From Bacteroidia bacterium (GTDB lineage Bacteria > Bacteroidota > Bacteroidia > UKL13-3), in assembly GCA_041675505.1 (NCBI GenBank), contig JBAYTR010000015.1, positions 4,972-68,971 on the forward strand: a stretch of DNA of 64,000 nucleotides, written 5' to 3'. Below the pieces are notes generated by a model. That model saw only the letters and a program-made list of their open reading frames with translations. It was not told where the DNA came from and ran no database searches. Position 1 is the first letter of the stretch, and each line of letters opens with the position of its first letter. Position numbers and translations under genes: made by a program. Positions 34,138 to 51,732 of this stretch are shown here, in pieces.

Positions 34138-34214
34138 TTTTCAAGTCTCGACTACTGAAATTACCACTTGTCCATTCCAAAACTCTATTTACCTTTGTGC
34201 TGTCCAATTAATCT

Positions 34215-34310
34215 TGGGGGTGCTGTAAAGTGGTAGTTAATATTACCACCAATACGGCTGAGATTACACCCTTTGAACCTGAACAGGATAATACCTGCGA
34301 ATGGGAAAGA
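34215..34310 (+). ncRNA. TPP (thiamine pyrophosphate) riboswitch (THI element) in the 5' leader of a TonB-dependent receptor gene.
   Basis: Contains GGGGUGC...CUGAGA..ACCCUUUGAACCUGAACAGGAUAAUACCUGCGAAUGGGAA. Both conserved cores of the THI-box are present in the right order: the CUGAGA J3-2 region and the pyrophosphate-binding helix GAACCUGA..GGAUAAUACC..GCG.AGGGA. Confidence 0.85.
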
Positions 34311-34422
34311 AGCGAAACACTTACGTTCCGTAGGTGTTTTCCATCTGAACAAAAGGGGGTTTAATTCACGCGGCTGTCAGCCCGGGCAGTTGCAATGTTT
34401 TAGCCTTTAATGTTTTAGTTTT

Positions 34423-36813
34423 ATGCGTTCTTATGTTATCTTTTTTCTTCTGCTGTTTTTTGCCGGCAGAAATGTTCACGCGCAATTTGTTTTGAGTGGT
34501 ACAGTTCAACACAGTGCAAACAGCCAACCGCTGACAGATGCGACTGTGGTGCTTTCCTCGCCAGGCAAAACCGCACAAAGCACACTTACGGATGTGCAGG
34601 GAAAATTTTCTCTTAGTGTTGCTGAAACAGGAAGGTATGTACTCAACATTACTTATGTGGGATACAAAACCTTGTCAGACACCATTGAGTTGACACAAAG
34701 CATGCAAAAAAACTACCGACTGGAATGGGCAGCATTGCTCAGTGACGCAGTGATTGTAAGTGGTATTCGTGCTAAAGACAAGTCAGCAACAACGTTCACC
34801 AACCTCAACAGGGAGCAGTTGAATGAACGGAATTTCGGGCAGGATATGCCGGTATTGCTCGTGCTCACCCCCTCAACCGTTGTTAACTCAGATGCAGGAG
34901 CAGGCGTGGGTTACACGGGCATCACCATTCGGGGGGTTGACCAAACCCGCATCAACGTTACCATCAACGGTATTCCGTTAAACGATGCTGAATCGCAGGG
35001 ATTATTTTGGGTAAACACACCCGACTTTGCCTCATCAGTAGAACAGGTGCAGATACAACGTGGTGTGGGTACCAGTACCAATGGTGCAGCCGCATTCGGC
35101 AGTAGCATCAACATGCAAACCACGGCCCTGCACCCTAAAGCATATGCTGAATATGCTACCGCAGCGGGCTCTTTCAACACATTTAAAAACACCGTGAGAT
35201 TTGGTACGGGTTGGTTAAACGGAGGCTGGACCATTGACGGAAGATTATCCAAAATTACTTCCGATGGTTTTATTGACCGGGCTTCTTCTGATTTAAAATC
35301 GTATTATCTCTCAGCAGGACGTTATACCGAAAAAAGTATTCTGCGACTGGTTTCATTCAGCGGTGCAGAGAAAACCTATCAGGCGTGGAACGGAATTGCG
35401 GAAGATGTGCTTGACACCAACCGCACCTACAATGAGTTCACTTACAAAAACCAAACAGATAACTACCAACAGGATCATTACCAGTTGTTGTACAGCTATC
35501 AGCTGAGCAAAAAAACCACCTTGAACACGGCATTGCACTACACTTACGGACGTGGGTATTATGAAGAATACAAGCAGGGCGAAAGTTTTGCAGATTACCA
35601 TTTACAGGATGTAATAATAGGTACCGACACCATTACGACAACCGATTTGGTTCGCAGGCGCTGGTTGGACAATGATTTTTACGGAGCTACTTTTTCTGTT
35701 ACACATGAGCCCGATAACAAAAGCACATTTATTGCAGGAGGCGGGGCAAGTTATTATGAAGGGCGACACTTTGGTGAAGTCATTTGGTCGCAGTTTGCTT
35801 CCAACAGTTTTATAGGTGATAAGTATTACCGTAACAATGCGTATAAAACGGATGCAAATATCTATGCCAAATACAACCGTGAATTAGGCAAAAAATGGAA
35901 CGCATTTGCTGATTTGCAATACCGTTATGTTGATTATTCGTTCTTGGGGTATGACCAGAATCTGAATAACGTTCAACAGAATGCACGCTTCAATTTCTTT
36001 AATCCGAAGGCCGGGATAGTATATTCAATAAGTGATTCCAGTAATGTATATTTAACACTAGCCGTTTCTAACAAAGAGCCCAACCGCAATGATTTTGTGA
36101 ACTCAACTCCATCCAGCAGACCGGAGTCTGAACAACTGCAGAACATAGAGCTGGGCTGGAGAAAAAACTGGCAGCGAGCATCATTACAGGTTAATTATTA
36201 TTTGATGTATTATCGCAATCAGCTTATTCTTTCAGGAAAGATAAATGATGTAGGCGCGTATACCCGTTTGAATGTACCTGAGAGTTATCGTACCGGTATA
36301 GAGTTGAGCGCTTCAGTAAACGTGACTAAAAAAATTCAGTGGAGCGGAAACCTGACTTTGAGTGAAAACAAAATTTTGTCCTTTACAGAGTATGTGGATG
36401 ATTACGATTGGGGAGGGCAGTGGAGTACCAAGTACAGAAATACTTCCCTGGCATTTTCGCCAGCTATGATTGCTGCCTCACAATGGAGATTTTTACCGCT
36501 TAAAAATGCGACTATAGACGTAATTAGTAAATACGTTTCAAGGCAGTACATGGACAATACGGAGAACAAGGACAGAAGTCTGGATGCTTTTTTGGTAAAT
36601 GATTTACGTTTCTCGTACACACTTAAAACAAAAAAATCAGGTTGGTTCAGGCAACTGAATGCAGGTGTATTGATTAACAATGTACTGGGCGAAAAGTATG
36701 AACCCAATGGGTACACTTACAGTGGCATAAGCGGAGGTGTAAGGAGTGATTACAATTATTATTACCCGCAGGCAGGCCGAAATTTCCTGATGCAACTCAC
36801 GTTTGCTTTTTAA
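34423..36813 (+). CDS. TonB-dependent outer-membrane receptor with an N-terminal carboxypeptidase-D-like regulatory domain.
   Basis: Signal peptide, a CarbopepD_reg-like domain (SGTVQH..TDATVVLSS..TDVQGKFSL), a plug domain, and a C-terminal beta-barrel ending in an aromatic residue (..LTFAF). Confidence 0.85.
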   Translation: MRSYVIFFLLLFFAGRNVHAQFVLSGTVQHSANSQPLTDATVVLSSPGKTAQSTLTDVQGKFSLSVAETGRYVLNITYVGYKTLSDTIELTQSMQKNYRLEWAALLSDAVIVSGIRAKDKSATTFTNLNREQLNERNFGQDMPVLLVLTPSTVVNSDAGAGVGYTGITIRGVDQTRINVTINGIPLNDAESQGLFWVNTPDFASSVEQVQIQRGVGTSTNGAAAFGSSINMQTTALHPKAYAEYATAAGSFNTFKNTVRFGTGWLNGGWTIDGRLSKITSDGFIDRASSDLKSYYLSAGRYTEKSILRLVSFSGAEKTYQAWNGIAEDVLDTNRTYNEFTYKNQTDNYQQDHYQLLYSYQLSKKTTLNTALHYTYGRGYYEEYKQGESFADYHLQDVIIGTDTITTTDLVRRRWLDNDFYGATFSVTHEPDNKSTFIAGGGASYYEGRHFGEVIWSQFASNSFIGDKYYRNNAYKTDANIYAKYNRELGKKWNAFADLQYRYVDYSFLGYDQNLNNVQQNARFNFFNPKAGIVYSISDSSNVYLTLAVSNKEPNRNDFVNSTPSSRPESEQLQNIELGWRKNWQRASLQVNYYLMYYRNQLILSGKINDVGAYTRLNVPESYRTGIELSASVNVTKKIQWSGNLTLSENKILSFTEYVDDYDWGGQWSTKYRNTSLAFSPAMIAASQWRFLPLKNATIDVISKYVSRQYMDNTENKDRSLDAFLVNDLRFSYTLKTKKSGWFRQLNAGVLINNVLGEKYEPNGYTYSGISGGVRSDYNYYYPQAGRNFLMQLTFAF

Positions 36814-39705: not shown

Positions 39706-42700
39706 TTGGAGGTCACTATGAAAAGAACATTACTTCTAACCTGCCTTTTAATTCTTTCTACCTTTGCTGTTAGAGCTTCGCACATCGCGGGTAGCGACAT
39801 GGAGTTTCAGTGTTTAGGCAAAGACACGTTCAAAGTCGTTTATCGCATATATAGAGATTGCCGGGGAGTTCCTTTAGGTAATTTTCTTCCAATTACGCTT
39901 AATACTGTGGGATGTACTCCAAATAGAATGGCAACAACAAATCTGGTGAAAGACTCTGTCGTTAAGTTAAGGTACTTGTGTGATGACAAAACAACAATTT
40001 GTGAAGGAGGTAGTTTCCAATTCGGTATCGAAGAACATATTTTCTCCGGTATTATAATTCTTTCACAGCTTTTTCCCGGAGGTTTAGACTCCAATTGTTG
40101 TCGGGTAAAAGCAACCTGGACCGACTGTTGTCGCAATGGTGCTATTAATAATATAGTCAACCCGGGTACCACAGGTTTTATGATTGATGGAGAAATTAAT
40201 AGATGTATAAAACCCTGCAACAGTTCTCCTACTTTTACCAATAAACCTGTCGCAGTAATCTGCACAGGTGTCCCATTTTGCATGAACATGGGTGTGGTAG
40301 ATAACATTGACAGAGACTCCATTTCATATGAACCTACCACACCATTAAATTCAAATGGCCAACCGGTTCAATTTATCCCACCCTATTCTGCCAACATGCC
40401 GACTCAAGTTTTGGGAGGCAATGCTAGTCTGCCTTATCCTGCAGGGTTTCATGTAGACTCTGTAACAGGAAATATTTGTTTTACTCCTACAGCCACACTG
40501 ATGACATTTGTTTTGGCTGTAAAAGTTATTGAGTGGAGGAAAATAGACGGGGTATATGTGAAAATCGGAGAAACCAGACGTGATATGCAGATGTTTGCAT
40601 ATCAGTGCCCGGCAAATGCATCGCCAAAAATCGAAGTGAACGGAAGTACCACAGGACCTTGGTCGTTCCAAGCGTGTGTAGGTGAAGCTTTATGCCTAAG
40701 CATTCGAGCTTTGGATACTGACACAGGACCAGCAAAGTATGACTCTACCCGTTTGAGTTGGAACCGAGGCATTCCAACGGCATCATTTACTAATTCAAAT
40801 ACACCTAACTTTCAAATTCGTTGGGATGAGGCACAATTCTGCTGGACTCCGGGTGATCAGCATGTAAGTTCACTACCCTATTATTTTATTTTAAAAGCAG
40901 AAGATGATAATTGCGAAGTGCCGGCAACAACTCAGCGACCAATATCTATTTTCGTTCGCCCACGCCCATTAGGTAACAGAACCTACCAGAAAATATCTTG
41001 TAGTAAATATTCGCTGAATGTTCAACTAACAAATACGCAAAATGTAGACAGTACTAAGGTTACTTATGAGTGGCGAGTCGCTAATGCAGGTAACGGGACA
41101 TTTAGCTTGTTAACCTCAACAATGTACACCACCAAATATGCTGAGCACACTTTTACTAACGGAGGCTACTTTGTTATACGTGCACGTTTGGTAGCACCTC
41201 CCTGCACTACCTTTTATTTCGATACAGTTTATGTGGATACCCCAGTAAAAGCCATCGCACAGCCCGATACTTTTGTGTGTGCCGGAAAATCTGTACAATT
41301 ATCAGCGTATGCTACAAACGGTGATTCACCCTACAAATATAAATGGACACCGGCCGGAGGTAATGACTCCTCGCTTCAATATTCTTTTTTACCCACAGGT
41401 AATACCGTATGTGTGTTTGAAGTGACGGATTCAATAGGGTGTAAAGCTTATGATACCGTTAATGTGGAAATGAAAGCCTTGCCAAATGTTAATCTGGGGC
41501 CCGACAGACGAATCTGTTTTAAAGACAGTATTTTATTTGATGGGGGAGATAACAATGGTGCTGGCCTCATTCGTTTTACGTGGAGTTCACCAAGGGGAAC
41601 GGCTAACGAACGAATGATTTACGCGCCTGATTCAGGGCAATACGCTGTTGAGGTAACCGATAGTTTTAACTGTGTAAATGCCGATACAGCTTTATTATTT
41701 ATCAATAGGGAAGTAAAAGCACAAGCAGGTCCCGATGATACCTTATGTATTTATGATACGGATACACTCAGAGGTTCAGGTGGTGAAACATACGAGTGGC
41801 ACGAGGTAAGTAATCCTTCAGTAATTCTTTCTAATCAAGCCCTACTGCCATTAAACCTTTTGCAGGTTGGAGTTAAGGCATATGTACTTAAAGTGGGTGT
41901 TACTTACAACGGAGTTACCTGTTATGATTACGATACAGTTTTTATTACCACTCGGCCACTACCGGTTATTACATTCTCCAACAGAAATGTCAAATTCTGT
42001 CTTACTGATTCATGGTTAAACCCGGGAACAAAAACAGGAGTTCAACCGGTTTCAAATACAGCAACAGGAGATTACGGGTACTGGACCATTAGTGATGCGA
42101 CAAAACAAAACTGTTTCGAAAAAGACAGCACCAAACAGGAATTTGGCTGGGTGAAGCTAAATTGTTTAGGTGTTAACCAAGCACCCAATCCTCCATCATG
42201 GAAATTGGTATATGTATTCCGCGACCGTTTTGGTTGCATCAATAGCGATTCTGTTGATGTGGTAATATTGCCTTTGCCAATAGTGTGGGCAGGTATTGAT
42301 CGGGTGGAATGTGGTAACAAAGACTCTATTGCTATTATTCCGTACCCTAATTTTGGTGTAGGAAGCGAGTGGTTGTCACCACCTTCACCTAACACTAATG
42401 TTCCTAACCCGGTTTTAGAGTACCTGCCATTAACTCGTAAGCACACGTATTATCCAAGCAGAGCGCAGCAGAACCATTACGATACCCTCGTGTATAAAGG
42501 AACCGATAATAATGGTTGTGAAAACACAGATACAGCCATAATCTACATTAAGCCTGTACCTGAAGTTGACGCGGGTAAGTTATCTGCGGTTTGTCATTTT
42601 GATAATCCGGTTAACTTGAATACCGTAGCAGGAGCAACACCATCGGGTGGGATGTGGAATGCTGAAATTCTTTCGCCTCCGGTTACAGGATTGGATACCA

Positions 42701-44181
42701 ATGGAATTTTTGACCCATCAAAGGCAACACGATTAGGAAAAGGCTTGCCCAATATTCTGAAGTATACTTTCACCAACACATACAACTGCACTGCTGCTGA
42801 TACCGTTCATCTGGTAGTTTACCCGCTTCCTGCAACCCGATTGACTGCTCCTGACTCAGCTGTTTGTGAAAACCATGCTCCCGTTGCATTTAACGGTACC
42901 CCTAAAGGAGTGGGAGGAGTGTATTACCTTAATGATAAAAATTTAGGGCCGGCACAGCCATTTTTTGAGTTTGACCCCAACAAACAGAACAATCCGAATG
43001 TGTTGGAAGGAATAAATTGGGTGAAGTATTATTATACCGATGTGAACGGTTGTAAAAAAGCGGATTCACTCAGAATACGTGTTCAGTTGATGCCTGATGT
43101 AACATTGATTTCGCCACCCGGAGCATTGTGTGAAGGAGATACATTCACTCTTCGAGGAACCATGAGTAAAACAAATTCATTCAGATGGTCAACATCAGGA
43201 GATGGTAAATTCACCGGACAGTTTTCTAATATTACGGATTCAACTTCAACAGACAGTGTTGTCAATTACACACCCGGAGCAAATGATATTTTCAATCAAG
43301 GCTGCTTCGTGAGATTGATATCAACCGACAATGGTATATGCCCCGCTGATGTAGAACAAAAGCCGATAAAAATTGAGGTTAAGCCTTCAGGAGACTTTAC
43401 TGCTATTCAGGAAGGGTGCGAGCCTTTTACTACTTTCTTTGACGGGGCGTTCACCGGCTATCAATACATTCGGTGGAATTTCGGAGACCTAACTTCACCT
43501 TTGGTGGGGGATGAAGATCCTGTTCATACCTACGTGAAGAAGGGCTTGTATGACGTATCGGTTTATCTTCGTTCTCCTGCCGGATGTGAACAAACCATCA
43601 CTAAACCACAGTTTATAAAAGTGAACCCAACACCGGTAGCCTATTTTGAACCCGATAAAAAGAAATCGACTATTGCACTGCCTCGTTTCACGTTCTTTAA
43701 CAAGAGTACGAATTATACAGAGAAAGACAGTGTAACCCTGATGTGGAATTTTGGAGACCCCAAGTCGGATGTAGATACTTCAGGTACAAACAATCCAACC
43801 TACACCTATGAGCCGTCTATTGGTAAATACATAGTTACATTGAACGTAACTACAAATAAAGGTTGCACTTCTGATTACTCAGATACCTTGCTTTTGGAAC
43901 CTGATATTACTGTATTTGCTCCCAATGCTTTCAGGCCACAAAGTGCTCAGGACCGTAACCAGAAGTTTTACATTGTGGTTGACGGAGCAATGACCTATCA
44001 CTTGGATATATTTAACCGTTGGGGAGAATTGGTGTTCAGCTCTGATGATCCGGAAGAAGGCTGGGACGGCCGTTATCAGAATATCAACAGCCAGCAAGAT
44101 GTTTACGTGTGGCAGGTGAATGTAACCAGCTACAGCGGAAGGCCGTATAAATATTCCGGAACAGTTACCCTGATCAGATAA
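39706..44181 (+). CDS. Giant (1491 aa) SprB-repeat/PKD-like cell-surface protein with a type B T9SS C-terminal domain (gliding-motility-associated CTD).
   Basis: Signal peptide. Multiple ~90 aa repeats end in a G/N-C-x2-x-D-S/T-x-x-V/I-x-V motif (SprB-repeat-like). The C-terminus (..FAPNAFRPQSAQDRNQKFYIVVDG..DIFNRWGELVF..GWDG..YVWQV) matches the CHU_C/type B T9SS sorting domain. Confidence 0.8.
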   Translation: MEVTMKRTLLLTCLLILSTFAVRASHIAGSDMEFQCLGKDTFKVVYRIYRDCRGVPLGNFLPITLNTVGCTPNRMATTNLVKDSVVKLRYLCDDKTTICEGGSFQFGIEEHIFSGIIILSQLFPGGLDSNCCRVKATWTDCCRNGAINNIVNPGTTGFMIDGEINRCIKPCNSSPTFTNKPVAVICTGVPFCMNMGVVDNIDRDSISYEPTTPLNSNGQPVQFIPPYSANMPTQVLGGNASLPYPAGFHVDSVTGNICFTPTATLMTFVLAVKVIEWRKIDGVYVKIGETRRDMQMFAYQCPANASPKIEVNGSTTGPWSFQACVGEALCLSIRALDTDTGPAKYDSTRLSWNRGIPTASFTNSNTPNFQIRWDEAQFCWTPGDQHVSSLPYYFILKAEDDNCEVPATTQRPISIFVRPRPLGNRTYQKISCSKYSLNVQLTNTQNVDSTKVTYEWRVANAGNGTFSLLTSTMYTTKYAEHTFTNGGYFVIRARLVAPPCTTFYFDTVYVDTPVKAIAQPDTFVCAGKSVQLSAYATNGDSPYKYKWTPAGGNDSSLQYSFLPTGNTVCVFEVTDSIGCKAYDTVNVEMKALPNVNLGPDRRICFKDSILFDGGDNNGAGLIRFTWSSPRGTANERMIYAPDSGQYAVEVTDSFNCVNADTALLFINREVKAQAGPDDTLCIYDTDTLRGSGGETYEWHEVSNPSVILSNQALLPLNLLQVGVKAYVLKVGVTYNGVTCYDYDTVFITTRPLPVITFSNRNVKFCLTDSWLNPGTKTGVQPVSNTATGDYGYWTISDATKQNCFEKDSTKQEFGWVKLNCLGVNQAPNPPSWKLVYVFRDRFGCINSDSVDVVILPLPIVWAGIDRVECGNKDSIAIIPYPNFGVGSEWLSPPSPNTNVPNPVLEYLPLTRKHTYYPSRAQQNHYDTLVYKGTDNNGCENTDTAIIYIKPVPEVDAGKLSAVCHFDNPVNLNTVAGATPSGGMWNAEILSPPVTGLDTNGIFDPSKATRLGKGLPNILKYTFTNTYNCTAADTVHLVVYPLPATRLTAPDSAVCENHAPVAFNGTPKGVGGVYYLNDKNLGPAQPFFEFDPNKQNNPNVLEGINWVKYYYTDVNGCKKADSLRIRVQLMPDVTLISPPGALCEGDTFTLRGTMSKTNSFRWSTSGDGKFTGQFSNITDSTSTDSVVNYTPGANDIFNQGCFVRLISTDNGICPADVEQKPIKIEVKPSGDFTAIQEGCEPFTTFFDGAFTGYQYIRWNFGDLTSPLVGDEDPVHTYVKKGLYDVSVYLRSPAGCEQTITKPQFIKVNPTPVAYFEPDKKKSTIALPRFTFFNKSTNYTEKDSVTLMWNFGDPKSDVDTSGTNNPTYTYEPSIGKYIVTLNVTTNKGCTSDYSDTLLLEPDITVFAPNAFRPQSAQDRNQKFYIVVDGAMTYHLDIFNRWGELVFSSDDPEEGWDGRYQNINSQQDVYVWQVNVTSYSGRPYKYSGTVTLIR

Positions 44182-44250: not shown

Positions 44251-45642
44251 ATGAAATCAGCTAATCGGGTAAAACCAATTTTTCTATTATCACTTTTTCT
44301 CAGTGTATTTGCGGCACCCATTTATGCGCAGCAGCATAATGATTCACTTGTGGTGAAGCAACTGTTTAATGAAGCACTAAATAAAGGTAAAGCATACGAA
44401 AACCTCAGGTATTTATGTAAAAATATCGGGCACCGCTTGAGTGGTAGCGCAAATGCACAAGCTGCTGTTGAATACACCAAACGATTAATGACAGAGTATG
44501 GGTTTGATAAAGTATACCTGCAACCTGTTTCAGTTCCTAAGTGGGTAAGAGGTGAAAAAGAACAAGCCAAAGCGATACTTTCAAACGGGAAAAGTGTACC
44601 CTTGAGAATACTTGCCTTAGGCAATTCAAAGGGCACCGGACCAGAGGGAGTCAAAGCACAGGTTGTAGAAGTAAAAACACTTAAGCAGTTGGATTCGTTG
44701 GGTGAAAAAGAGATTAAGGGCAAGATTGTATTTTTTAACCGACCAATGAATCCTTCTTTCATTACTACTTTTGAGGCGTATGGAGATGCAGTTGACCAAC
44801 GCTCTATAGGGGCGAGTATGGCGGCAAAGTACGGTGCTGTTGCGGTAATCGTAAGGTCCATGACTCTTGCTCATGATACTTTTCCGCACACGGGGGCATT
44901 GCGGTACATTGATTCCCTGCCTCAAATTCCTGCAGTTGCTATCAGCACAAATGATGCGGATGTTCTAAGCATTTTTGTTAAAAAGGATAAAGGAGTGGAG
45001 GTGTATTACAAAACACTTTGCGAAATGCAGGGCGAGGTAATGTCATACAACGTGGTGGGAGAAATAAAGGGAAGCAAATACCCCGAAGAAGTCATAGCAG
45101 TTGGCGGTCACCTCGACTCTTGGGATGTGGGAGAAGGGGCACATGATGACGGAGCCGGCTGTATACAATCAATTGAAGCATTGCGCCTATTCAGGTCGCT
45201 GGGTATAAAACCTGCGCGCACTATAAGGTGTGTTATGTTTATGAACGAGGAAAATGGTTTAAGGGGTGGTAAGGCATACGATGAGCAAACCAAGGGAGAA
45301 AAGCATATTGCGGCAATTGAATCAGACCGAGGAGGGTTCACACCCAGAGGATTTTCAATTGATACGGATAATGCAGCGCACGTTCAAAAGATTAAAAGCT
45401 GGAAACAAACACTGAGTGCTTTTGGTTTAGATAAAATAGAAGCAGGAGGGGGAGGAGCCGATATAAGTTTTCTGAAGCAACGCGGGTGCACATTAATTGG
45501 TTTTGTTCCTGACTCGCAACGGTATTTTGATTTTCATCATGCGTCAACAGATGTATTTGAAGCAGTAAACAAAAGAGAACTGGAGATGGGCGCTGCCTCA
45601 ATGGCTGCGCTTATCTGGTTACTTAGCGAGAACGGGCTCTAA
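44251..45642 (+). CDS. M28 family zinc peptidase (aminopeptidase) with a signal peptide.
   Basis: Signal peptide. HLDSWD..GAHDDGAG..NEENG.. is the M28 metal-binding pattern (H, D, E, D, H). Confidence 0.8.
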   Translation: MKSANRVKPIFLLSLFLSVFAAPIYAQQHNDSLVVKQLFNEALNKGKAYENLRYLCKNIGHRLSGSANAQAAVEYTKRLMTEYGFDKVYLQPVSVPKWVRGEKEQAKAILSNGKSVPLRILALGNSKGTGPEGVKAQVVEVKTLKQLDSLGEKEIKGKIVFFNRPMNPSFITTFEAYGDAVDQRSIGASMAAKYGAVAVIVRSMTLAHDTFPHTGALRYIDSLPQIPAVAISTNDADVLSIFVKKDKGVEVYYKTLCEMQGEVMSYNVVGEIKGSKYPEEVIAVGGHLDSWDVGEGAHDDGAGCIQSIEALRLFRSLGIKPARTIRCVMFMNEENGLRGGKAYDEQTKGEKHIAAIESDRGGFTPRGFSIDTDNAAHVQKIKSWKQTLSAFGLDKIEAGGGGADISFLKQRGCTLIGFVPDSQRYFDFHHASTDVFEAVNKRELEMGAASMAALIWLLSENGL

Positions 45643-46023
45643 TTTTGATTGCAGCGTATTCATATTTAAAGGCTTCGATAACATAGCCTCAATGTTCTTA
45701 ATGTTGGCAGCATTTAGTTTATCTTCCAAATCAATGGAAGAGGAGAGTATAAATATTTTACTTTTCTCCACAAAAGCAGGGTTTTGAAGCGTAAGTTTTT
45801 CAGCCAGTTCAAACCCGTTCATGTCAGGAATTTGCAAATCAATCAGGAATATTACATCAGTTAGTTTTTCCTTGTTTGTTTTGATGAACTCAAGCGTAGG
45901 TTGTGATTCTGTAAACGTGTAAACATCTTTGCACAGTTCCGACAGTTCAATGAAACGCTTGTTAATCAAAAGATCTATATCACTGTCATCTACAAGAACG
46001 AAGGTGTATTTTTGTGTTCCCAT
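45619..46023 (-). CDS. Stand-alone response regulator receiver (CheY-like) protein.
   Basis: REC-domain pattern: acidic pocket VLVDDSD, the phospho-acceptor Asp region (..IFLIDLQIPDMNG), and the conserved Lys. Confidence 0.8.
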   Translation of the reverse strand: MGTQKYTFVLVDDSDIDLLINKRFIELSELCKDVYTFTESQPTLEFIKTNKEKLTDVIFLIDLQIPDMNGFELAEKLTLQNPAFVEKSKIFILSSSIDLEDKLNAANIKNIEAMLSKPLNMNTLQSKLEPVLAK

Positions 46024-46031
46024 GTATTGTG

Positions 46032-47114
46032 TTAATCTAATGCAGGAATTAATATTTTAAAGGTTGTCCCCATGGTTTGATTTGATTCAACATCTATACT
46101 GCCTTTCAGTTTAGTTACGGCTTCTTTTACAATATATAAACCAATTCCTGAGCCGCTGTTGGGGTTATTTCCTCTGAAAAACATTTTAAATATATTGTCT
46201 TTTTCTCCATCCTTCAGGCCGATACCGTTATCTGATATAACGATGCTACATTCTTTTGAAGTGCAGGTAATATTTACATCAATAGTACTTTTCACTTTGT
46301 CCTTATCGTGGTACTTTACAGCATTGGATATAATATTACTGAGAATAATGCGGAGTTTGATGGGGTCTGATTTAAAGTTCGATACCTGATTGATATGAAT
46401 ATTGAAATCAATTTTGCTGAAACCCGGCATAAAGTTGAGTGATTCAGTAATATCTCCTATGAGTTTATTAAAGTCAATAGCACCAATATGAAAATCACTA
46501 CGGGAGTTTTTATAATAATCAATAATACTCAGAATAAACTTGTCAAGTTTGTGAACTGACTGCTCAATGAGTTTAAGGTACTGGTTGCTGTTTCCTGTTT
46601 CTAATTCTGATAACTGCACAATTCCGAGTATGGACATAAGCGGTGCGCGTAAATCATGCGAAGCACTGTAAACAAATTTATCCAGCTCATCGTATGCTTT
46701 TTGTAGCTCAGTATTTCTTTCCCTTAATTCTTTCCGGGTTTTGTAAATATCATAAGCATTTTCAATGGCAGTTCTTACATAACCATTATCCCAGGGTTTA
46801 TCAATAAAGCGGAATACTTCTCCTTTGTTGATGGAGTCAATAGCGGCATTTATATCACTGTACCCGGTGATAAGTATTCTTAGCGGCTCTGAGTACTGGT
46901 GACGTATTTTCTCAAAAAACTGCACACCCGTCATTACCGGCATACGTTGATCTGCCAGAACTATATGAATTTCATGTTTTGCAAGAATTTCTTCAGCTTC
47001 TGCAACAGAGGTTGTGGTGTAGATATTATACTCTTTGCGGTATTCCGCCTTAAAGCCGTTAAGGTTTGCCTCCTCATCGTCAATATAAAGAAGATTGATA
47101 TGCGGTTTTGGCAT
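46032..47114 (-). CDS. Hybrid response-regulator/histidine-kinase (N-terminal REC, then HisKA, then HATPase_c).
   Basis: REC (LLYIDDEE..ADQRMPVMTG), an H-box (SASHDLRAPL), and an ATPase G-box (GSGIGLYIV). Confidence 0.85.
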   Translation of the reverse strand: MPKPHINLLYIDDEEANLNGFKAEYRKEYNIYTTTSVAEAEEILAKHEIHIVLADQRMPVMTGVQFFEKIRHQYSEPLRILITGYSDINAAIDSINKGEVFRFIDKPWDNGYVRTAIENAYDIYKTRKELRERNTELQKAYDELDKFVYSASHDLRAPLMSILGIVQLSELETGNSNQYLKLIEQSVHKLDKFILSIIDYYKNSRSDFHIGAIDFNKLIGDITESLNFMPGFSKIDFNIHINQVSNFKSDPIKLRIILSNIISNAVKYHDKDKVKSTIDVNITCTSKECSIVISDNGIGLKDGEKDNIFKMFFRGNNPNSGSGIGLYIVKEAVTKLKGSIDVESNQTMGTTFKILIPALD

Positions 47115-47128
47115 GGTGAAAGGTAATA

Positions 47129-49288
47129 TTATTTGAGCAATTTAGGAAGTTTTATAACAAATTCAGCACCTTCGCCCGGAGAAGAGTTTACCTGTATGCT
47201 TCCCTTGTGCATTTCAATAATCTTGTACACAATAGATAAGCCCAGCCCGGTACCTTCTCCCACTTCTTTGGTAGTAAAGAAGGGGTCAAACATGTTGGAC
47301 TTTACCTCATCGGTCATGCCCATGCCGGTATCAGCAATTTTCACTACCACCATATCGTTCTCGAAAGAAGTGCTTACCGTTATTTTTCCATGCCCGTCTT
47401 TAAAATTTCGTATGGCATATATACTGTTATTGAGCAGGTTCATAAAAACCTGGTTGAGCTTGCCCGGATAACATTCTATATCAGGAAGACTACCCAATAC
47501 TTTTTCAATTTTTACTTTATCTCCCAGCTGGTTGTTAAGCAATATGAGTGTGGAAAGAATGCCTTCATTAATGTTGGCGTGTTTTATCTCCGCTTCATCA
47601 AGTCGGGAGAAGTTCTTGAGGCCCTTTACAATTTCCACAGTTCTGGATGCGCCCTCTTCCATTCCTTTGAGCAGCATTTCAATTTCTTTGCGTATATAAT
47701 CGTAATCAATTTCTTCTTTGAACTGCTTAATGTTGGTCATTAGAGATTTGATTTCATCTGCGGTGAAATTCTCTTGAAGCAGATCATATTTTTCCAGAAT
47801 GGCAATGAGGTCGTCCACATCCCTTCTTAACGGACGGATGTTGGAGCTCACAAAGTTGATGGGATTATTTATTTCATGTGCAATACCCGCTGTAAGTTGT
47901 CCAAGCGAGGCCATTTTTTCTGCATCTACCAGTTGTGTTTGTGCGTCTTTTAATTGCGTAAGTGCGTTGCTTAAATCAGTGTTCGTTTCCTGAAGTTCAA
48001 GGGTTCTTTCCTCTACTTTTTGTTCCAGAATAATGTTTTGTTCGCGCACTATACGCTCATTTTCCCTTAGCGCCATCAAGGCCTCTTCTTGCGATTTTTC
48101 TTTTTCTATCTTCAGAATATTGATTCTGTCAGCAAGTGCAATGGAGAGCAAAATGGCCTCAATAGCAGAGCCAAACTGGATGGACGATGAGGTGATGTTA
48201 TTAAAAGGCAATACACCCACATCCTTTAACACAAAAACAACAATACTCAGCAGAAAAGCCGACCAGGCAATAATGAAGAAAAGTGCCGGACGAGAATTAA
48301 ATTTGATTCTCACATATATGGCAGCAAAGAGCATGGCAAATGTTAGTCCCAGAGCAAAAAGGTTGAGCAGGTTATAGGCAATGTGTTTTTGTTCGCCCAG
48401 CCCCACAAAAAGCGGAATAAAATAGAGCACGCAAAACGTAAGTAACAGCTTATTGATTTTTGGCGTGAGGTTTTTTATATCCAGAAATTCGCGAAGAAAT
48501 CCGATAGAGGTGAATGCCGTGAGACAAGAGAAAAGGAACATGCTGTACTTTTCAAAAGCAGGCCACTCAGGCCACAGGTATTTGAAGCCGTACCCTTTTA
48601 TACTTATTTGTGTCAATGCAACGGAAAGAATGTACACGATATAAAAGAAATAGATGCGATCTCGTACACTAAAAAGGAGAAAGAGGTTATAAAGAAAAAT
48701 CACCAACATTATGCCGGCATATAATCCAAAACCCATGTCATCAACCAATCCGGCTTTATAACCTGCCTTGGCAGACCCGAAATAGACGGGTACCTGCATT
48801 TCACTATAGGAGTTGAGCAGTAAATAGCACTCAAACACAGTTGGGGTGTCAGTCACGGGCAAATCAAAGACATAGTTCGGGTTATCGTACGTTCTTTGGC
48901 TGTAGAAATTATTTTTGCTGATAGTAGTTGCGGAAAACGGATTGCCTGCTGAACGAGTATAGAATGTAATATTTTCCAGCATGGGGTTGGCAACATTTAT
49001 CACCATTCTGTTTTGCGCGCTGTTGCTGGCCATAAACTTCACCCACAGGTTAAAAGTTGAAACCTGCTCATGTGGTATTTCCGTTTTAATTTCTTTAAAA
49101 CTTTGCCCGTTCTTACTTACTGCTTCAATGTCGAGCAGGTTTGTTGTATCCTGAAATACCAGCAAATGATTTTTGTTCAATAGAATAAACGGATCATTGG
49201 CAGCAACAGAGACAATATCGGTTTGAGAAAAAACAAAAAATGAAGTAAGACTGAATACTAATGCAAAGTAGAGTTTAAGTGTTTTCAT
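47129..49288 (-). CDS. 7TMR-DISM family sensor histidine kinase (periplasmic DISMED2 domain, 7-TM module, HisKA, HATPase_c).
   Basis: Signal peptide, a periplasmic beta-rich domain, seven predicted TM helices, a coiled coil, an H-box (GIAHEINNPINF) and a G-box (GTGLGLSIVYKI). Confidence 0.85.
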   Translation of the reverse strand: MKTLKLYFALVFSLTSFFVFSQTDIVSVAANDPFILLNKNHLLVFQDTTNLLDIEAVSKNGQSFKEIKTEIPHEQVSTFNLWVKFMASNSAQNRMVINVANPMLENITFYTRSAGNPFSATTISKNNFYSQRTYDNPNYVFDLPVTDTPTVFECYLLLNSYSEMQVPVYFGSAKAGYKAGLVDDMGFGLYAGIMLVIFLYNLFLLFSVRDRIYFFYIVYILSVALTQISIKGYGFKYLWPEWPAFEKYSMFLFSCLTAFTSIGFLREFLDIKNLTPKINKLLLTFCVLYFIPLFVGLGEQKHIAYNLLNLFALGLTFAMLFAAIYVRIKFNSRPALFFIIAWSAFLLSIVVFVLKDVGVLPFNNITSSSIQFGSAIEAILLSIALADRINILKIEKEKSQEEALMALRENERIVREQNIILEQKVEERTLELQETNTDLSNALTQLKDAQTQLVDAEKMASLGQLTAGIAHEINNPINFVSSNIRPLRRDVDDLIAILEKYDLLQENFTADEIKSLMTNIKQFKEEIDYDYIRKEIEMLLKGMEEGASRTVEIVKGLKNFSRLDEAEIKHANINEGILSTLILLNNQLGDKVKIEKVLGSLPDIECYPGKLNQVFMNLLNNSIYAIRNFKDGHGKITVSTSFENDMVVVKIADTGMGMTDEVKSNMFDPFFTTKEVGEGTGLGLSIVYKIIEMHKGSIQVNSSPGEGAEFVIKLPKLLK

Positions 49289-49294
49289 ACAGTT

Positions 49295-50017
49295 TTATTT
49301 TGCAGCGGCTCTTTTTAAAGTGAGATCAATATTTACACAGGCCTTTCCCTTTGGTCCTTCAGCAAATATCTGTTGTATCGGTTTATTCAGCAAATTCACC
49401 ACCTCTTGCCGCTGTTCTTCCGCTGCAGTGCTTAATAAAGGCACATCATTTATAACCAGCGAGGTGGCCACCAGGTCAAGTTTCGGGTAATAGAATGTAC
49501 CCTCTTTACCTATAGAAGTTTCAATCACAAATCCATAGGTTTTGGCCATAGCCACAGTGTAGGGCGCACATAAAACAAACAGGGAGCCCATGTCAAGCAT
49601 TCGTGCCAAAGTTACTCCCATGCGGGTAAGTAAAATGCTCAAGCCATGGCCGGCTATGTCTTTGGAGTTCCATAGTCCGCATAATTCTCCGGTTTTATTT
49701 TTGGCATATTCTGCCACCAGCGGGTATATCTTGGTATCTACTATTCCTATGGCTTCTTCAATAGGTAAGGGTTGGGTGTCATTGGCAATATGTACTCTCT
49801 CCCCACCATAAGTATGTTTTCCATCTTCAGATTCTACTATGATAACAAAAACTCCCGGATTATAAAACCAGTCGTTTTTTGCTGAGGTAACTTTGGTTAC
49901 GCCATAGTCACGTAAAACATTCGCATGTCCTTCCGCAAAACGCCTGCACGATTCAACATCATCAGGTGCTCTGAATACTCTTACGCGTATGTTTTTTTCC
50001 CTTTTCTGATCTTTCAA
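49295..50017 (-). CDS. GNAT-fold acyltransferase-like protein (240 aa) of unknown specificity.
   Basis: Motif A-like KDIAGHGLSILLTRMGV and motif B-like TVAMAKTYGFV. It has a 4-bp ATGA overlap with the upstream E1-like gene. Confidence 0.5.
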   Translation of the reverse strand: MKDQKREKNIRVRVFRAPDDVESCRRFAEGHANVLRDYGVTKVTSAKNDWFYNPGVFVIIVESEDGKHTYGGERVHIANDTQPLPIEEAIGIVDTKIYPLVAEYAKNKTGELCGLWNSKDIAGHGLSILLTRMGVTLARMLDMGSLFVLCAPYTVAMAKTYGFVIETSIGKEGTFYYPKLDLVATSLVINDVPLLSTAAEEQRQEVVNLLNKPIQQIFAEGPKGKACVNIDLTLKRAAAK

Positions 50018-51150
50018 TGGCGATTTTGTTTGATGGCTAGGTCAATATCAAAATATAATCTGCCAGACAGTGTTGCTTGTTTTAAAAGTATTTGCCTGCA
50101 CGCTTCAGTAGTTATTGCTCCTCCGAGGAATACTGCTGAAGAAAGCTGAGGCCAGGAAACAATAGTTTTACCGTATTCCTTCATGGAGAATTTTAATCTT
50201 TCCGAGATATTCTCCGCACTGATTATTTTCATCACTATCGGAAGTTTTTCCTGTGGTGTGAGGTTGCTCAACTCCTGATAAGAAATATCTCCGACCAAAC
50301 CATGCAGAACGGGTAATGTATTGTCCAGATCAAATCGTTCAATGTCCAGCATTCCGCGGTCATTGGTATCCATTACTACCGGTATTCCATGTTCACGTGC
50401 TTTGAGTCTGCACAACAATTTAATATCGAGGCTATCACATTCATCTACCAATATATCCAATTTTCCCCCGTCACACAAAAACGATTCTATATTGTCTTCG
50501 GTAACCCCGTTTTTAAATATTTTGAGTTGAATAAAGGGGTCCAGCTCTGATATTCTTCTTTGTGCAATAACCCATTTGGGCAGGCCTATTTCATGTATAC
50601 CGGCCTCCAGTCTGTTCATGTTGCTCAGGTCGAGCGAATCAAAATCAGCAATTCTGATTTCACTGCACACACGTTCCATGGCCAAACAAACGGCAATGGT
50701 CATTCCTACCGATAAGCCAATTACACCTATCTTTTTTGATTGCAATTCGACTTGTTCTTCCCGGGTGATTTTATACAGATTTCTGCTGGTTCGCAGCTCC
50801 ATATATTCTTCCTCATCAAGCAAATGAACCAGTTTCTTGCTCCAGGGGTAATATACCCATACCCCATATTCCTGTAGTGAGGTACCTTTAAGAAGGTCTG
50901 AAAGAAAATGTTCTTTATTTAATTGAACAGGAGGAATGTGTGGATTACGAATTCGTTGCAACTCAAAAAGCTGTTCTTCTATAGTGTCATATACTTCGCA
51001 ATCCGTTACAGATTGAAAGAGTTCTGACAAGCGAGCCTTGTCCTGTTCCTTGCTCAAACGGAAAAATTGAGGGGTATCCTCAGTAGAAAATACACTATCC
51101 TTTGCCGCACCTCTTTTCAGACAGACGGTAATATCGTCCGACATTTTCAT
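50014..51150 (-). CDS. E1-like (ThiF/MoeB/HesA fold) adenylyltransferase with a ~125 aa N-terminal extension.
   Basis: Rossmann nucleotide loop with the Mg-binding Asp and the SNxNR arginine-finger region (IGVIGLSVGMTIA..IRIADFDSLDLSNMNRL), then a Vxxxd.vDxxD...Ln..c motif. It lacks the C-terminal CxxC zinc motifs of MoeB/ThiF. Confidence 0.7.
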   Translation of the reverse strand: MKMSDDITVCLKRGAAKDSVFSTEDTPQFFRLSKEQDKARLSELFQSVTDCEVYDTIEEQLFELQRIRNPHIPPVQLNKEHFLSDLLKGTSLQEYGVWVYYPWSKKLVHLLDEEEYMELRTSRNLYKITREEQVELQSKKIGVIGLSVGMTIAVCLAMERVCSEIRIADFDSLDLSNMNRLEAGIHEIGLPKWVIAQRRISELDPFIQLKIFKNGVTEDNIESFLCDGGKLDILVDECDSLDIKLLCRLKAREHGIPVVMDTNDRGMLDIERFDLDNTLPVLHGLVGDISYQELSNLTPQEKLPIVMKIISAENISERLKFSMKEYGKTIVSWPQLSSAVFLGGAITTEACRQILLKQATLSGRLYFDIDLAIKQNRH

Positions 51151-51258
51151 TCGCTTAATTTTTCAGCAAATTAGAAATTATTCGATGAATTATTGTATGA
51201 AGGCCATGAATATTTGAAATTTTAGTAAAAAATTGTTTTAAGACCTTTAATTTTGTGT

Positions 51259-51732
51259 ATGGAGTTGGACGAAAAAACGAAAGTTAACATACTGTATGTG
51301 GACGATGAAGAAAACAATCTTCAGTCGTTTAAAGCAGCATTCAGAAGGGATTATAATGTTTTTCTGGCTTCGTCAGGCTTTCAGGGGCAGGATGTTTTGA
51401 AGCAACACACCATTCACATTATTGTAACCGATCAACGCATGCCGGGGATGACCGGTGTAGAATTTTTGGAGTCTATTTTAGATGAATACCCTGATGCTAT
51501 GCGCATTTTGTTAACGGGTTACAGTGATATTGATGCCGTGGTGGATGCAGTAAATAAGGGCAAGATTTATCATTACCATCAAAAACCGTGGGATGAAAAT
51601 CTTTTGAGAACAGTTTTCAAAAACGCCTATGCGCATTACCGTTTAGTTGAGGACAATAAAGAGCTTACTCAAAAACTTATTGTGGTCAACAATCAATTGG
51701 AGTTTATGCTGCGTCAAAAATTGCTGGATTAA
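51259..51732 (+). CDS. Stand-alone response regulator receiver protein, paralogous to the REC domain of the 46032..47114 hybrid kinase.
   Basis: ILYVDDEENNL..IVTDQRMPGMTG..LLTGYSDIDAV..KPWDEN is near-collinear with INLLYIDDEEANL..LADQRMPVMTG..LITGYSDINAA..KPWDNG. Confidence 0.8.
   Translation: MELDEKTKVNILYVDDEENNLQSFKAAFRRDYNVFLASSGFQGQDVLKQHTIHIIVTDQRMPGMTGVEFLESILDEYPDAMRILLTGYSDIDAVVDAVNKGKIYHYHQKPWDENLLRTVFKNAYAHYRLVEDNKELTQKLIVVNNQLEFMLRQKLLD

Follow-up and report, generated by a model that had tools for sequence, protein, structure and literature searches.

A conserved enzyme and receptor-kinase module in Bacteroidota suggests an undescribed quorum-sensing-like system

Related systems and layout of the locus

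Bacterial N-acyl oxazolones are made by TrzA/TrzS (Rv1356c/Rv1355c) of Mycobacterium tuberculosis, OxzA/OxzB of Pseudoalteromonas rubra and TyzACB, in which an ATP-dependent cyclase of the Rv1355c family adjoins an N-acyltransferase with a GNAT fold. Rv1355c (TrzS) has been shown biochemically to cyclise and then desaturate the N-acyl-Trp made by TrzA, and a variant with an inactive flavin-oxidase (FDO) half still yields the cyclised, saturated product (PMC12856293). Similar chemistry is known from the tRNA t6A dehydratase TcdA, an E1-like enzyme that adenylates an N-carbamoyl amino acid at a carboxylate and cyclises it to an oxazolone (PMC12596934), although its substrate is a tRNA nucleoside. 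The published homologue clusters of the oxazolone enzymes are rich in Actinomycetota, and characterised systems also come from Pseudomonadota; in the literature that we searched, no paper ties these enzymes to kinases or to Bacteroidota.

Among signalling systems, the phcBSRQ operon of Ralstonia solanacearum/pseudosolanacearum encodes, in this order, a synthase, a membrane sensor kinase, a soluble protein with REC and HK domains and a protein with REC alone; grouping by signal type is seen for PhcB and PhcS but not for PhcR and PhcQ (PMC8578825). PhcS has been proposed to feed several receivers that lack DNA-binding domains (PMC11960443). Bacillus comQXPA and Staphylococcus agr combine a conserved backbone with a hypervariable block, deep types of which are exchanged among close relatives. 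To this block belong the enzyme that modifies the signal and the kinase's sensor part. Polymorphism of comQXP has been described (PMC4408185). The domain order DISMED2, 7TM, HisKA and HATPase_c occurs in RetS and LadS of Pseudomonas aeruginosa. Both of these kinases bear C-terminal receiver domains, and neither is known to be encoded beside a ligand-synthesis gene.

We analysed a 64,000-nucleotide stretch of DNA from a member of the Bacteroidota (the window), which carries a predicted enzyme pair of the oxazolone type embedded in a kinase/receiver operon, an arrangement undescribed in the oxazolone papers. Its features are as follows.

50014..51150, minus strand: E1, short-form ThiF-like cyclase of the Rv1355c/TrzS family, 378 aa
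49295..50017, minus strand: X240 (the 'GNAT' gene), 240 aa, TTG start, GNAT-fold
47129..49288, minus strand: 7TMR-DISM kinase, 719 aa (Pfam 7TMR-DISMED2, 7TMR-DISM_7TM, HisKA, HATPase_c)
48125..49171, minus strand: sensor half of the kinase, hypervariable, putative ligand-specificity region (PF07696 and PF07695)
47129..47926, minus strand: kinase core with stop codon, residues 455–719 (Pfam HisKA, HATPase_c)
46032..47114, minus strand: REC-HK, 360 aa (Pfam Response_reg, HisKA, HATPase_c)
45619..46023, minus strand: REC134, 134 aa, final gene of the operon (Pfam Response_reg)
51253 or 51259..51732, plus strand: REC159, divergent (Pfam Response_reg)
51151..51258, no strand: divergent intergenic region between E1 and REC159, 108 bp, presumably holding both promoters

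A sequence-only reading had described this locus as five tightly packed minus-strand genes with a divergent REC gene, and the ORFs and Pfam confirm its coordinates, gaps and domains; ThiF, the DISM kinase, REC-HK and the RECs all have Pfam matches, and GNAT is borne out by fold only. The ORF calls leave gaps of -4, 6, 14 and 8 bp between the five genes, the first of these because the start of X240 is taken as a TTG codon, which overlaps the E1 stop (cATTGA); X240 has no alternative ATG. The five genes are probably co-transcribed. The E1/REC159 intergenic region contains a perfect match to the Bacteroidetes -7 motif, TAATTTTG, at 51248–51255 on the plus strand and a partial match, TAATTTG, on the minus strand about 20 nt upstream of the E1 ATG, but the motif is not enriched over chance. 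At the other end of the operon, the 3' end of REC134 overlaps a convergent M28 peptidase gene by 24 bp.

The enzymes, the kinase and the receivers

E1 matches NCBIfam NF005901 ('Rv1355c family') with an E-value of 1e-136 over model positions 9–341 of 722, which correspond to the N-terminal half. Since half of the model is absent from the window protein, the score of 457 bits lies just under the full-length cut-off of 476 bits. Full-length orthologues in related loci reach 776 bits, above this equivalog cut-off, and contain an Acg-type FMN oxidoreductase half. In contrast to TrzS, the window enzyme lacks the flavin-oxidase half, and a search with an HMM of FDO halves found no FDO homologue in the 64 kb.

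The ThiF core of E1, with its Pfam match, spans residues 122–259 (nt 50374–50787). GLSVG145–149, D169/D171, N179-R180, K192 and C238-D239 are near-invariant among short and long orthologues; the DxD, NxNR, K and C-D239 motifs align to both TcdA and ThiF, the TcdA alignment includes DxxDS, and the ATP-site residues are kept in both forms. TcdA is also the best match by sequence among solved structures (6e-6), although it lacks the N-terminal domain of about 120 residues that is common to the Rv1355c family. The AlphaFold (AF2) model of E1 (pLDDT 86.7) has AclA, ThiF, UBA5, MoeB and TcdA as its top folds. The family match, the motifs and the fold together mark E1 as an adenylating cyclase of ThiF type whose ATP site is intact.

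X240, which differs from the oxazolone systems in having no detectable sequence similarity to annotated families, has no match in Pfam, NCBIfam or PDB sequences. Its AF2 model (pLDDT 88.4) adopts a GNAT-type fold; among PDB folds, FeeM (N-acyl amino acid synthase; E 9e-8, TMt 0.75) comes first, followed by the CoA-dependent LuxI-type synthases BjaI, MesI and RpaI. We therefore predict from the model that X240 is a synthase of N-acyl amino acids. The family comprises 542 clusters at 50% identity, and its invariant residues include E111-x-C113-G-L-W-N117 and A122-G123-x-G125. The neighbour of a short E1 in Brevibacillus is not significantly similar to X240.

The sensor half of the kinase consists of a periplasmic DISMED2 domain (residues 40–170, nt 48779–49171; PF07696, E 3.6e-18) and a 7TM bundle (residues 185–388, nt 48125–48736; PF07695, E 3.6e-46). 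DISMED2 is a Pfam family predicted to bind carbohydrate. In the kinase core, the H-box residue His471 lies in an AHEINNP motif at residue 470, and HATPase_c covers residues 610–716. Mean identity across the kinase orthologues is 25% for DISMED2, 42% for the 7TM bundle and 61% for the kinase core. The domain order is that of RetS and LadS, but the window kinase has no receiver and sits within an enzyme operon.

REC-HK is a soluble protein with an N-terminal receiver (residues 9–117, Asp55) followed by HisKA (His153) and HATPase_c. REC134 (Asp62, without an output domain) and REC159 (Asp60 in the 159-aa numbering) are stand-alone receivers. As the sequence-only reading had it, the divergent REC is a paralogue of the N-terminal REC of the hybrid kinase: REC159 and residues 3–139 of REC-HK share 47% identity over 137 residues (E 8e-48), whereas REC134 and REC159 are only 25% identical. 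The two paralogues also have in common an alpha-1 surface, 'DDEExNLxxFKAxFR', from which REC134 differs. REC159 is the best-conserved protein of the module, and its conserved C-terminal helix ends in N-(D/N)-QLEF-(L/M)-LRQKLL. On these sequence relations, a branched relay or a phosphate sink is plausible. The conserved module contains no DNA-binding regulator or output, and no exporter gene is found in the module.

Conservation and co-variation of tailoring enzyme and sensor

We compared the best 80 of 478 loci from a collection of species-representative genomes. In 77 of these 80, the gene of the DISM kinase comes immediately after those of the enzymes, and the remaining three stop at a contig edge; the arrangement is far beyond chance. 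It spans Chitinophagales, Sphingobacteriales, Flavobacteriales and Cytophagales, with flanking genes that vary by lineage. The sequence-only reading had made its operon depend on conservation of the gene order in related genomes, and the order is strongly conserved, in 77/77 informative loci. REC-HK is present in 66 of the best 80 loci, REC134 in 58 and REC159 in 69, the last arranged divergently or, where the locus is of the Sphingobacteriales type, convergently at the opposite end. The same set of five was also recovered by independent gene calling in the isolate Chitinophaga sp. XS-30.

Kinase core, REC-HK, REC159, ThiF and X240 form a constant backbone beside a variable tailoring enzyme and sensor. 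As tailoring enzyme, the best 80 loci carry a long ThiF-FDO fusion, the full TrzS-type architecture (37 loci), a short ThiF (25), a SAM methyltransferase of small-molecule type in place of E1 (9) or an FAD oxidase (1). Among modules whose kinase cores are at least 78% identical, sensor identity is bimodal, at 29–34% or 57–98%. Loci L044 and L065, for example, are 91% identical in the kinase, 93% in REC-HK, 89% in X240 and 88% in ThiF, but only 29% in FDO and 32% in the sensor, and the conserved X240 gene sits between the two divergent segments. The isolates Pedobacter superstes (L067) and Paradesertivirga mongoliensis (L062) likewise share 78% identity in the kinase and 89% in REC-HK, against 33% in the sensor. 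Conversely, modules with the same sensor type on different backbones are 58% identical in the sensor and 53% in FDO versus 65% in the kinase, and this holds across gene orders. The methyltransferase is paired with sensor type 1 in 8/8 loci.

Sensor and FDO remain correlated when kinase, ThiF, X240 and REC-HK are controlled for (partial Mantel r = 0.70, reached by 0/5000 permutations, kinship being ignored); the ThiF control gives r = 0.02. The 7TM part co-varies most strongly with FDO (partial r 0.70), and DISMED2 alone also co-varies (partial r 0.58). Within the E1-X240-HK order, short and long forms of E1 do not separate sensor identity after controls. Loci L005 and L015 are a counter-example, since they fall into a common sensor cluster at 57% and yet have an FDO identity of only 32%. 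Synthase or tailoring enzyme and sensor thus co-diversify, as a statistical association that ignores kinship.

Proposed mechanism and alternatives

Co-variation of the sensor half with the tailoring enzyme indicates that the ligand of the kinase is probably made by the enzymes. On balance, we lean towards reading the six genes as a self-contained signalling module in which the enzymes produce what the kinase senses. The concerted change of sensor and tailoring enzyme suggests that Bacteroidota have a quorum-sensing-like system not described so far. The substrates and product of the enzymes, the secretion and binding of the ligand, the routes of phosphotransfer and the output are inferred as follows. 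By homology with TrzA/TrzS, OxzA/OxzB and TyzACB, X240 would N-acylate an amino acid from acyl-CoA or acyl-ACP, and the short ThiF-like enzyme would adenylate the carboxylate and close a 5(4H)-oxazolone. As the window enzyme has no flavin-oxidase half, this product would be saturated; with no FDO in the 64 kb either, a labile saturated azlactone is to be expected, provided that no other part of the genome encodes an oxidase. Orthologous modules may instead make a desaturated oxazolone (ThiF-FDO), a methyl ester (SAM methyltransferase for ThiF) or another oxidised form (FAD oxidase). The neutral, hydrophobic product would exit the cell or enter the membrane and be recognised by the DISMED2 and 7TM sensor half. 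His471 of the kinase could then phosphorylate the two paralogous receivers, at Asp55 of REC-HK and Asp60 of REC159. Phosphorylated REC-HK would switch its own kinase (His153), leading to phosphorylation of REC134 at Asp62, and the receiver-only proteins may act by protein–protein contacts, like PhcQ on PhcA in Ralstonia.

A signal-transduction operon headed by enzymes had been considered unusual, a view that phcBSRQ contradicts with its series of synthase, sensor kinase, REC+HK and REC-only protein (PMC8578825). The likeness extends to the lack of a DNA-binding domain in the operon, to the grouping of synthase and sensor, but not of the downstream proteins, by signal type, and to the methyltransferase of nine Bacteroidota loci, a SAM-dependent tailoring enzyme like PhcB. 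The differences lie in the signal (methyl 3-hydroxy fatty acid esters versus a predicted N-acyl amino acid derivative), in the 7TMR-DISM type of the window sensor and in the extra paralogous REC gene. The conserved backbone with a hypervariable block recalls comQXPA and agr, but their signals are peptides rather than a predicted acyl-amino-acid derivative, and our comparison is between species or MAGs, not strains of one species; the specificity groups are putative.

Of the alternatives, private feedback is unlikely but deserves the most weight: the enzymes would make an N-acyl lipid of the membrane, and the 7TM bundle would sense its level in the cell's own bilayer, in envelope or lipid homeostasis. 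Tryptazolones in actinobacteria are mostly intracellular and enriched in cell pellets (PMC12856293), which counts against a released signal, and Bacteroidota commonly contain N-acyl amino acid lipids (PMC12479983). The strong co-variation of the 7TM part with FDO and the lack of an exporter gene point the same way. Nevertheless, the periplasmic DISMED2 co-varies as well, the layout parallels a known quorum-sensing operon, and the shuffling of deep sensor types among near-identical backbones resembles pherotype diversification, for which a housekeeping homeostat would have no need.

A little more doubtful is control by an external cue, for example a carbohydrate bound by DISMED2, through a cascade that governs production of, or tolerance to, an N-acyl antibiotic or stress metabolite. 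The predicted carbohydrate binding of DISMED2 and the probable co-transcription of the module genes are consistent with this. So is the induction of oxazolone production by antibiotics in proteobacteria (bioRxiv 10.1101/2020.06.11.147165). However, since enzymes and receptor form one transcription unit, the cascade cannot readily turn on the enzymes without turning on itself as well; moreover, a DNA-binding regulator is missing from the conserved module, and an external cue would leave unexplained why sensor types follow the tailoring enzyme from backbone to backbone and from one gene order to the other. The sequence-only reading had likewise proposed that a signal controls the production of a modified metabolite or immunity to it; on the last two grounds, its causal direction is probably to be reversed.

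Recombination tracts or chimeric MAG assemblies might have produced the co-variation as a side effect without functional meaning, with enzymes and kinases merely sharing an operon, but we consider this improbable. Many loci do come from MAGs, X240 identity drops slightly beside the sensor in the non-Sphingobacteriales-type order, and one tract could replace both variable parts in Sphingobacteriales-type loci because the variable enzyme gene there directly adjoins the sensor-encoding 5' end of the gene for the kinase. In the E1-X240-HK order, though, the divergent segments are parted by a gene conserved at 75–89%; the same FDO–sensor pairing is found again with other backbones and under either gene order, and the isolates Pedobacter superstes and Paradesertivirga mongoliensis show the pattern too.

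Lastly, the C-termini of proteins or peptides are what ThiF/E1 enzymes usually adenylate (PMC12596934) and PADLOC gives weak E1-E2 domain matches, but modification of a signalling protein by the E1/GNAT pair (ubiquitin-like activation or acylation) is very improbable, given that no E2, JAB or beta-grasp genes occur in the module or its conserved neighbourhoods and PADLOC yields only weak E1-domain hits, that a small-molecule-type methyltransferase replaces E1 in nine loci, and that E1 belongs to the TrzS/OxzB family of small-molecule cyclases acting on N-acyl amino acids and is not a ubiquitin-type activating enzyme.

The physiological role of bacterial N-acyl oxazolones has been called a major unresolved question by their discoverers (PMC12856293). 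A signalling role had been suggested only from loose hints; here, a predicted biosynthetic pair is locked to a receptor-kinase operon in at least four orders of Bacteroidota, with a sensor that tracks the tailoring enzyme, which gives a testable ligand–receptor hypothesis. Cultured carriers include Chitinophaga sp. XS-30, Pedobacter superstes, Paradesertivirga mongoliensis, Hufsiella ginkgonis, Flavihumibacter soli, Daejeonella oryzae and Dyadobacter spp. More tentatively, signalling of this kind may be phylum-wide, with N-acyl-amino-acid-derived oxazolones as the autoinducers that 7TMR-DISM kinases read (some lineages would also use methyl esters or other oxidised forms) and with communication groups ('pherotypes') arising by co-replacement of the tailoring and sensor domains. 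To our knowledge, dedicated autoinducer systems in Bacteroidota are poorly defined and the ligands of 7TMR-DISM receptors mostly unknown. The module is a candidate native quorum-sensing system for the phylum and would supply a ligand class for these receptors; if the reading is true, it would provide the first physiological role for oxazolones and a dedicated quorum-sensing chemistry native to Bacteroidota.

Genes of the module

We recovered six genes by a scan for open reading frames. These are exactly the genes proposed from the sequence alone, and Pfam agrees with the domains assigned to them.

Genes of the module in the window (open reading frame scan; Pfam domains in brackets)
50014-51150, minus strand: E1, a ThiF-type enzyme (ThiF)
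49295-50017, minus strand: X240, a protein of 240 aa
47129-49288, minus strand: the sensor kinase, 719 aa (7TMR-DISMED2, 7TMR-DISM_7TM, HisKA, HATPase_c)
46032-47114, minus strand: REC-HK, a receiver and histidine kinase protein, 360 aa (Response_reg, HisKA, HATPase_c)
45619-46023, minus strand: REC134, a receiver, 134 aa (Response_reg)
51253/51259-51732, plus strand: REC159, a stand-alone receiver, 157-159 aa (Response_reg)

The five minus-strand genes are separated by -4, 6, 14 and 8 bp; the -4 gap depends on a TTG start of X240 that overlaps the stop codon of E1, and there is no alternative ATG. All phospho-acceptors are present (kinase His471, REC-HK Asp55 and His153, REC134 Asp62, REC159 Asp60), and by its domains the kinase is a bona fide 7TMR-DISM receptor.

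Scans of the locus for sigma-70 promoters, Bacteroidetes-type promoters and terminators gave no more hits than chance and are no evidence for or against internal promoters. A perfect Bacteroidetes -7 motif, TAnnTTTG (TAACTTTG), lies inside X240 (49607-49614, minus strand), with a -33-like TTG, and the kinase start follows some 320 bp downstream; it could be a candidate internal promoter for the signalling genes, with a motif frequency at chance level. An Rfam search found no RNA elements in the operon locus.

At its 3' end, REC134 overlaps a convergent gene for an M28/PA-domain peptidase (44251-45642, plus strand) by 24 bp (45619-45642), so that no terminator would fit between these transcription units. 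The close relatives L001-L003, L008 and L009 have the same overlap. Directly upstream of the peptidase gene, a 1491-aa protein (39706-44181, plus strand) carries PKD repeats and a CHU_C type IX secretion signal, which marks the genome as that of a T9SS-bearing member of the Bacteroidota. Further away, a TPP riboswitch (Rfam RF00059, 60.9 bits; 34206-34323, plus strand) directly precedes an open reading frame (34423-36813) for a TonB-dependent receptor with a CarboxypepD_reg domain, which suggests outer-membrane uptake regulated by thiamine.

Predicted biosynthetic enzymes

E1 matches the NCBIfam equivalog 'Rv1355c family protein' (1e-136) over model positions 9-341 of 722, that is, its N-terminal half, and NCBI names short proteins of Daejeonella, Niabella, Dyadobacter and Chitinophaga that are 50-55% identical to E1 after the same family. 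Rv1355c is TrzS, which was demonstrated in 2025 to make N-acyl tryptazolones together with TrzA (Rv1356c). TrzA acylates the amino group of tryptophan from acyl-CoA; the ThiF domain of TrzS then uses ATP to cyclise the N-acyl product, which the flavin-dependent oxidase (FDO) domain of the same protein desaturates. In a variant with a dead FDO domain, the cyclised saturated compound still accumulates (PMC12856293). OxzAB of Pseudoalteromonas rubra and TyzACB of M. tuberculosis perform the same chemistry on tyrosine or phenylalanine.

E1 retains GLSVG145-149, D169xD171, N177xN179-R180, K192 and C238-D239. Orthologues of both lengths keep these motifs almost without change, and the motifs line up with those of the ATP site in TcdA, an oxazolone-forming E1-like dehydratase that is the best solved relative of E1 by sequence. 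The AlphaFold model of E1 (pLDDT 86.7) matches ThiF-type folds. Its top structural match is AclA (PDB 9egb), a ThiF-type protein of Tenacibaculum discolor (Bacteroidota) solved with substrate in 2025; a literature search on AclA found no paper on its reaction. An HMM of FDO domains detects no oxidase anywhere in the 64-kb window, and by sequence the window E1 belongs to the Rv1355c/TrzS family in its short form, without the FDO half. The E1/X240 pair resembles a pathway to oxazolones or N-acyl amino acids and not a ubiquitin-like system; ubiquitin-like and defence readings of the pair were dropped, as genes for E2, JAB and Ubl proteins are absent.

X240 gives no match in sequence-family searches (Pfam, NCBIfam, PADLOC and a PDB profile search), and a fold search was the only informative one. 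By that search, X240 is a GNAT-fold protein of undefined family, so that the earlier 'GNAT' call holds at the level of the fold. The family comprises about 540 clusters at 50% identity, and the exact X240 sequence was not found in public assemblies. In two metagenomic proteins, P0260 (570 aa) and P0270 (662 aa), an X240-family domain forms the C-terminal part and is preceded by a region with a match to TIR domains (retron/Thoeris-type models) or to leucine-rich repeats; these fusions could be real or could be run-through gene calls.

The second enzyme, E1 in the window, varies among related loci. In the best 80 of 478 loci (see below), 37 carry a long E1 (∼740-782 aa; ThiF plus a nitroreductase-type FDO), one of which reaches 776 bits against the Rv1355c model across its full length (cut-off 476). 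A short E1 (∼360-390 aa), the window form included, is found in 25, and a 254-aa SAM-dependent methyltransferase takes the place of E1 in nine. In L064, a 525-aa FAD_binding_4 oxidase lies between X240 and the kinase. L064 (5920-13878) and L043 (10874-12241) have a variant module with this type of oxidase after X240, a truncated E1 and a REC-PAS-HisKA_3 kinase instead of REC-HK. For all of these variable enzymes, the site of action would be at or beside the carboxylate or alpha-beta position of an N-acyl amino acid. Sets of NAS, ThiF, nitroreductase and methyltransferase genes occur in N-acyl tyrosine clusters of other phyla (PMC12479983).

Conservation of the module and co-variation of sensor and tailoring enzyme

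A scan with one genome per species yielded 478 relatives of X240, and we analysed the best 80 of these 478 loci, many of them from MAGs. By record title or gene content, all 80 belong to the Bacteroidota, with Chitinophagales, Sphingobacteriales, Flavobacteriales (Cryomorphaceae, Owenweeksia, Vicingaceae) and Cytophagaceae represented. The sequence-only reading had made its operon dependent on conservation of the gene order in relatives, and the order is indeed kept: in 77 of the best 80, the gene immediately after the enzyme genes is that of the DISM kinase, and the other three loci stop at a contig edge. REC159 is present in 69, E1 in 67, REC-HK in 66 and REC134 in 58 of these 80, the absences falling mostly at contig ends. 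The full order, REC159 on the opposite strand followed by E1, X240, kinase, REC-HK and REC134, is found in 37 of the 80, and independent gene calls give the same five-gene string in the isolate Chitinophaga sp. XS-30. In Sphingobacteriales-type loci, X240 precedes E1 and REC159 is convergent at the far end. A Pedobacter MAG (L073) has REC159 twice (5619-6083 and 11853-12317): one copy precedes X240, and the other separates the DISM kinase from REC-HK. We found no exporter, transcription factor or other extra partner shared by the flanks of the 80 loci; the flanks hold lineage-specific housekeeping genes, and the six genes thus form a self-contained unit.

Conservation within the kinase is uneven. 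Mean identity across orthologues is 61% for the kinase core, 42% for the 7TM bundle and 25% for DISMED2. When kinase cores are at least 78% identical, identity of the sensor half (DISMED2 and 7TM) is bimodal, with 14 pairs at 29-34%, 21 pairs at 57-98% and none between. Single-linkage clustering gives 18 sensor types, which cross kinase-core clusters. Type 1 occurs in all eight methyltransferase loci analysed and type 3 in all seven short-E1 loci of the Sphingobacteriales type. Types also differ on a common backbone: Pedobacter superstes (ThiF-FDO) has type 9 and Paradesertivirga mongoliensis (methyltransferase) type 1.

Sequence identity (%) in two pairs of loci
Pedobacter superstes (long E1) and Pedobacter MAG (short E1): kinase core 87, REC-HK 90, REC159 93, X240 84, ThiF part 62, sensor 31
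L044 and L065 (both long E1): kinase core 91, REC-HK 93, X240 89, ThiF part 88, sensor 32, FDO 29

In the Pedobacter pair, the identity break falls at kinase residues 360-380, which is the end of the 7TM bundle. Both L044 and L065 have the order E1, X240, kinase, so the FDO half co-varies with the sensor despite X240 in between. Close pairs of the same sensor type (n=7) show 67% identity in the FDO half and 72% in the sensor, compared with 33% and 31% in close pairs of different types (n=15); the ThiF part is 85-88% identical in both groups alike. A partial Mantel test of sensor against FDO, given kinase, ThiF, X240 and REC-HK, yields an r of 0.70, reached by 0 of 5000 permutations, which ignore shared ancestry; the ThiF control gives 0.02. 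By sensor region, the partial r with FDO is 0.58 for DISMED2 and 0.70 for 7TM, and the cytoplasmic linker (0.08) does not participate. One pair, L005 and L015, is discordant, and among loci with E1 first, sensors do not divide by E1 form (short or long) once controls are applied. The window sensor belongs to type 4, which is common to L001, L002, L003, L008 and L009, all of them short-E1 or truncated, and is nearest to type 0 (41-43%).

Conversely, loci with sensor type 5 on two different backbones keep 58% identity in the sensor and 53% in FDO, against 65% in the kinase and 51% in X240, and type 8 is common to loci of different gene orders. An artefact of assembly or pure recombination would be an improbable source of this pattern: the co-varying segments are not contiguous, and they turn up together again on other backbones and in other gene orders, which such an artefact would hardly produce.

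Receivers, output and the proposed circuit

REC159 is 47% identical to the REC-HK receiver (E 8e-48), which bears out the paralogy noted earlier, and REC134 is only distantly related to REC159. REC159 and the REC-HK receiver have in common the alpha-1 motif DDEExNLxxFKAxFR; REC134 has DDSKLDCFIAEK. This fits an arrangement in which one kinase would serve REC159 and the REC-HK receiver, and a second kinase, REC-HK, would serve REC134. No protein of the module is more conserved than REC159, which is often 85-97% identical between close modules. Its tail (51637-51732) is a nearly invariant helix, N-(D/N)-QLEF-(L/M)-LRQKLL, across orders and is likely a partner-binding element. The conserved module contains no DNA-binding domain. 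The REC-PAS-HisKA_3 kinase replaces REC-HK in two Flavobacteriales loci, and a NarL/GerE-type response regulator beside REC159 in L064 is the only DNA-binding output near any module in the best 80 of 478 loci.

The best explanation, which we consider somewhat more probable than all others together, is that the enzymes would make a ligand that the kinase would sense. Its closest rival is a private version of the same circuit in which the cell senses its own membrane lipid, a possible but unlikely arrangement. Next comes the direction taken in the sequence-only reading, in which an external cue controls production of, or immunity to, a metabolite; it too is unlikely and leaves both the co-variation of sensor and tailoring enzyme and the absent transcriptional output unexplained. 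Modification of a protein by the E1/GNAT pair is very improbable, with every one of the E2, JAB and Ubl partners absent.

A circuit of ligand synthesis and sensing has precedents. Pherotype polymorphism is known from comQXP (PMC4408185) and agr, and the pattern of variable blocks found here recalls it. In function, the closest system appears to be phcBSRQ of Ralstonia, an operon that encodes a methyltransferase synthase, the sensor kinase PhcS, the soluble REC and HK protein PhcR and the REC-only PhcQ, and no DNA-binding domain; PhcB and PhcS group by signal type, and PhcR and PhcQ do not (PMC8578825). PhcS has been proposed to feed several receivers (PMC11960443), and PhcQ is reported to act through PhcA binding (PMC13320629). 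A signalling operon headed by enzymes, previously called unusual, is normal for quorum sensing, as phcBSRQ illustrates.

In Brevibacillus (Firmicutes; L081/L082, 8115-10128), a short Rv1355c-family E1 that is 55% identical to the window E1 adjoins a 283-aa unannotated protein upstream of parE/parC, and kinases are absent nearby. This suggests that the enzyme spread horizontally without the signalling genes; coupling to a kinase thus seems to be a feature of the Bacteroidota and not a property of the enzyme family. The 283-aa protein was considered as a bridge from X240 to other synthases and rejected, as its similarity to X240 is not significant (BLASTP E 0.002, hhalign probability 0.7%).

The literature that we searched on oxazolones, NAS-ThiF clusters and ThiF chemistry calls the role of oxazolones unknown and does not mention kinases, two-component systems or Bacteroidota in this context. 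New here are the conserved joining of the enzymes to a receptor cascade and the co-variation of sensor and tailoring enzyme; the enzymes themselves are new members of known families. By analogy, the module would be a variant of the two-component quorum-sensing kind.
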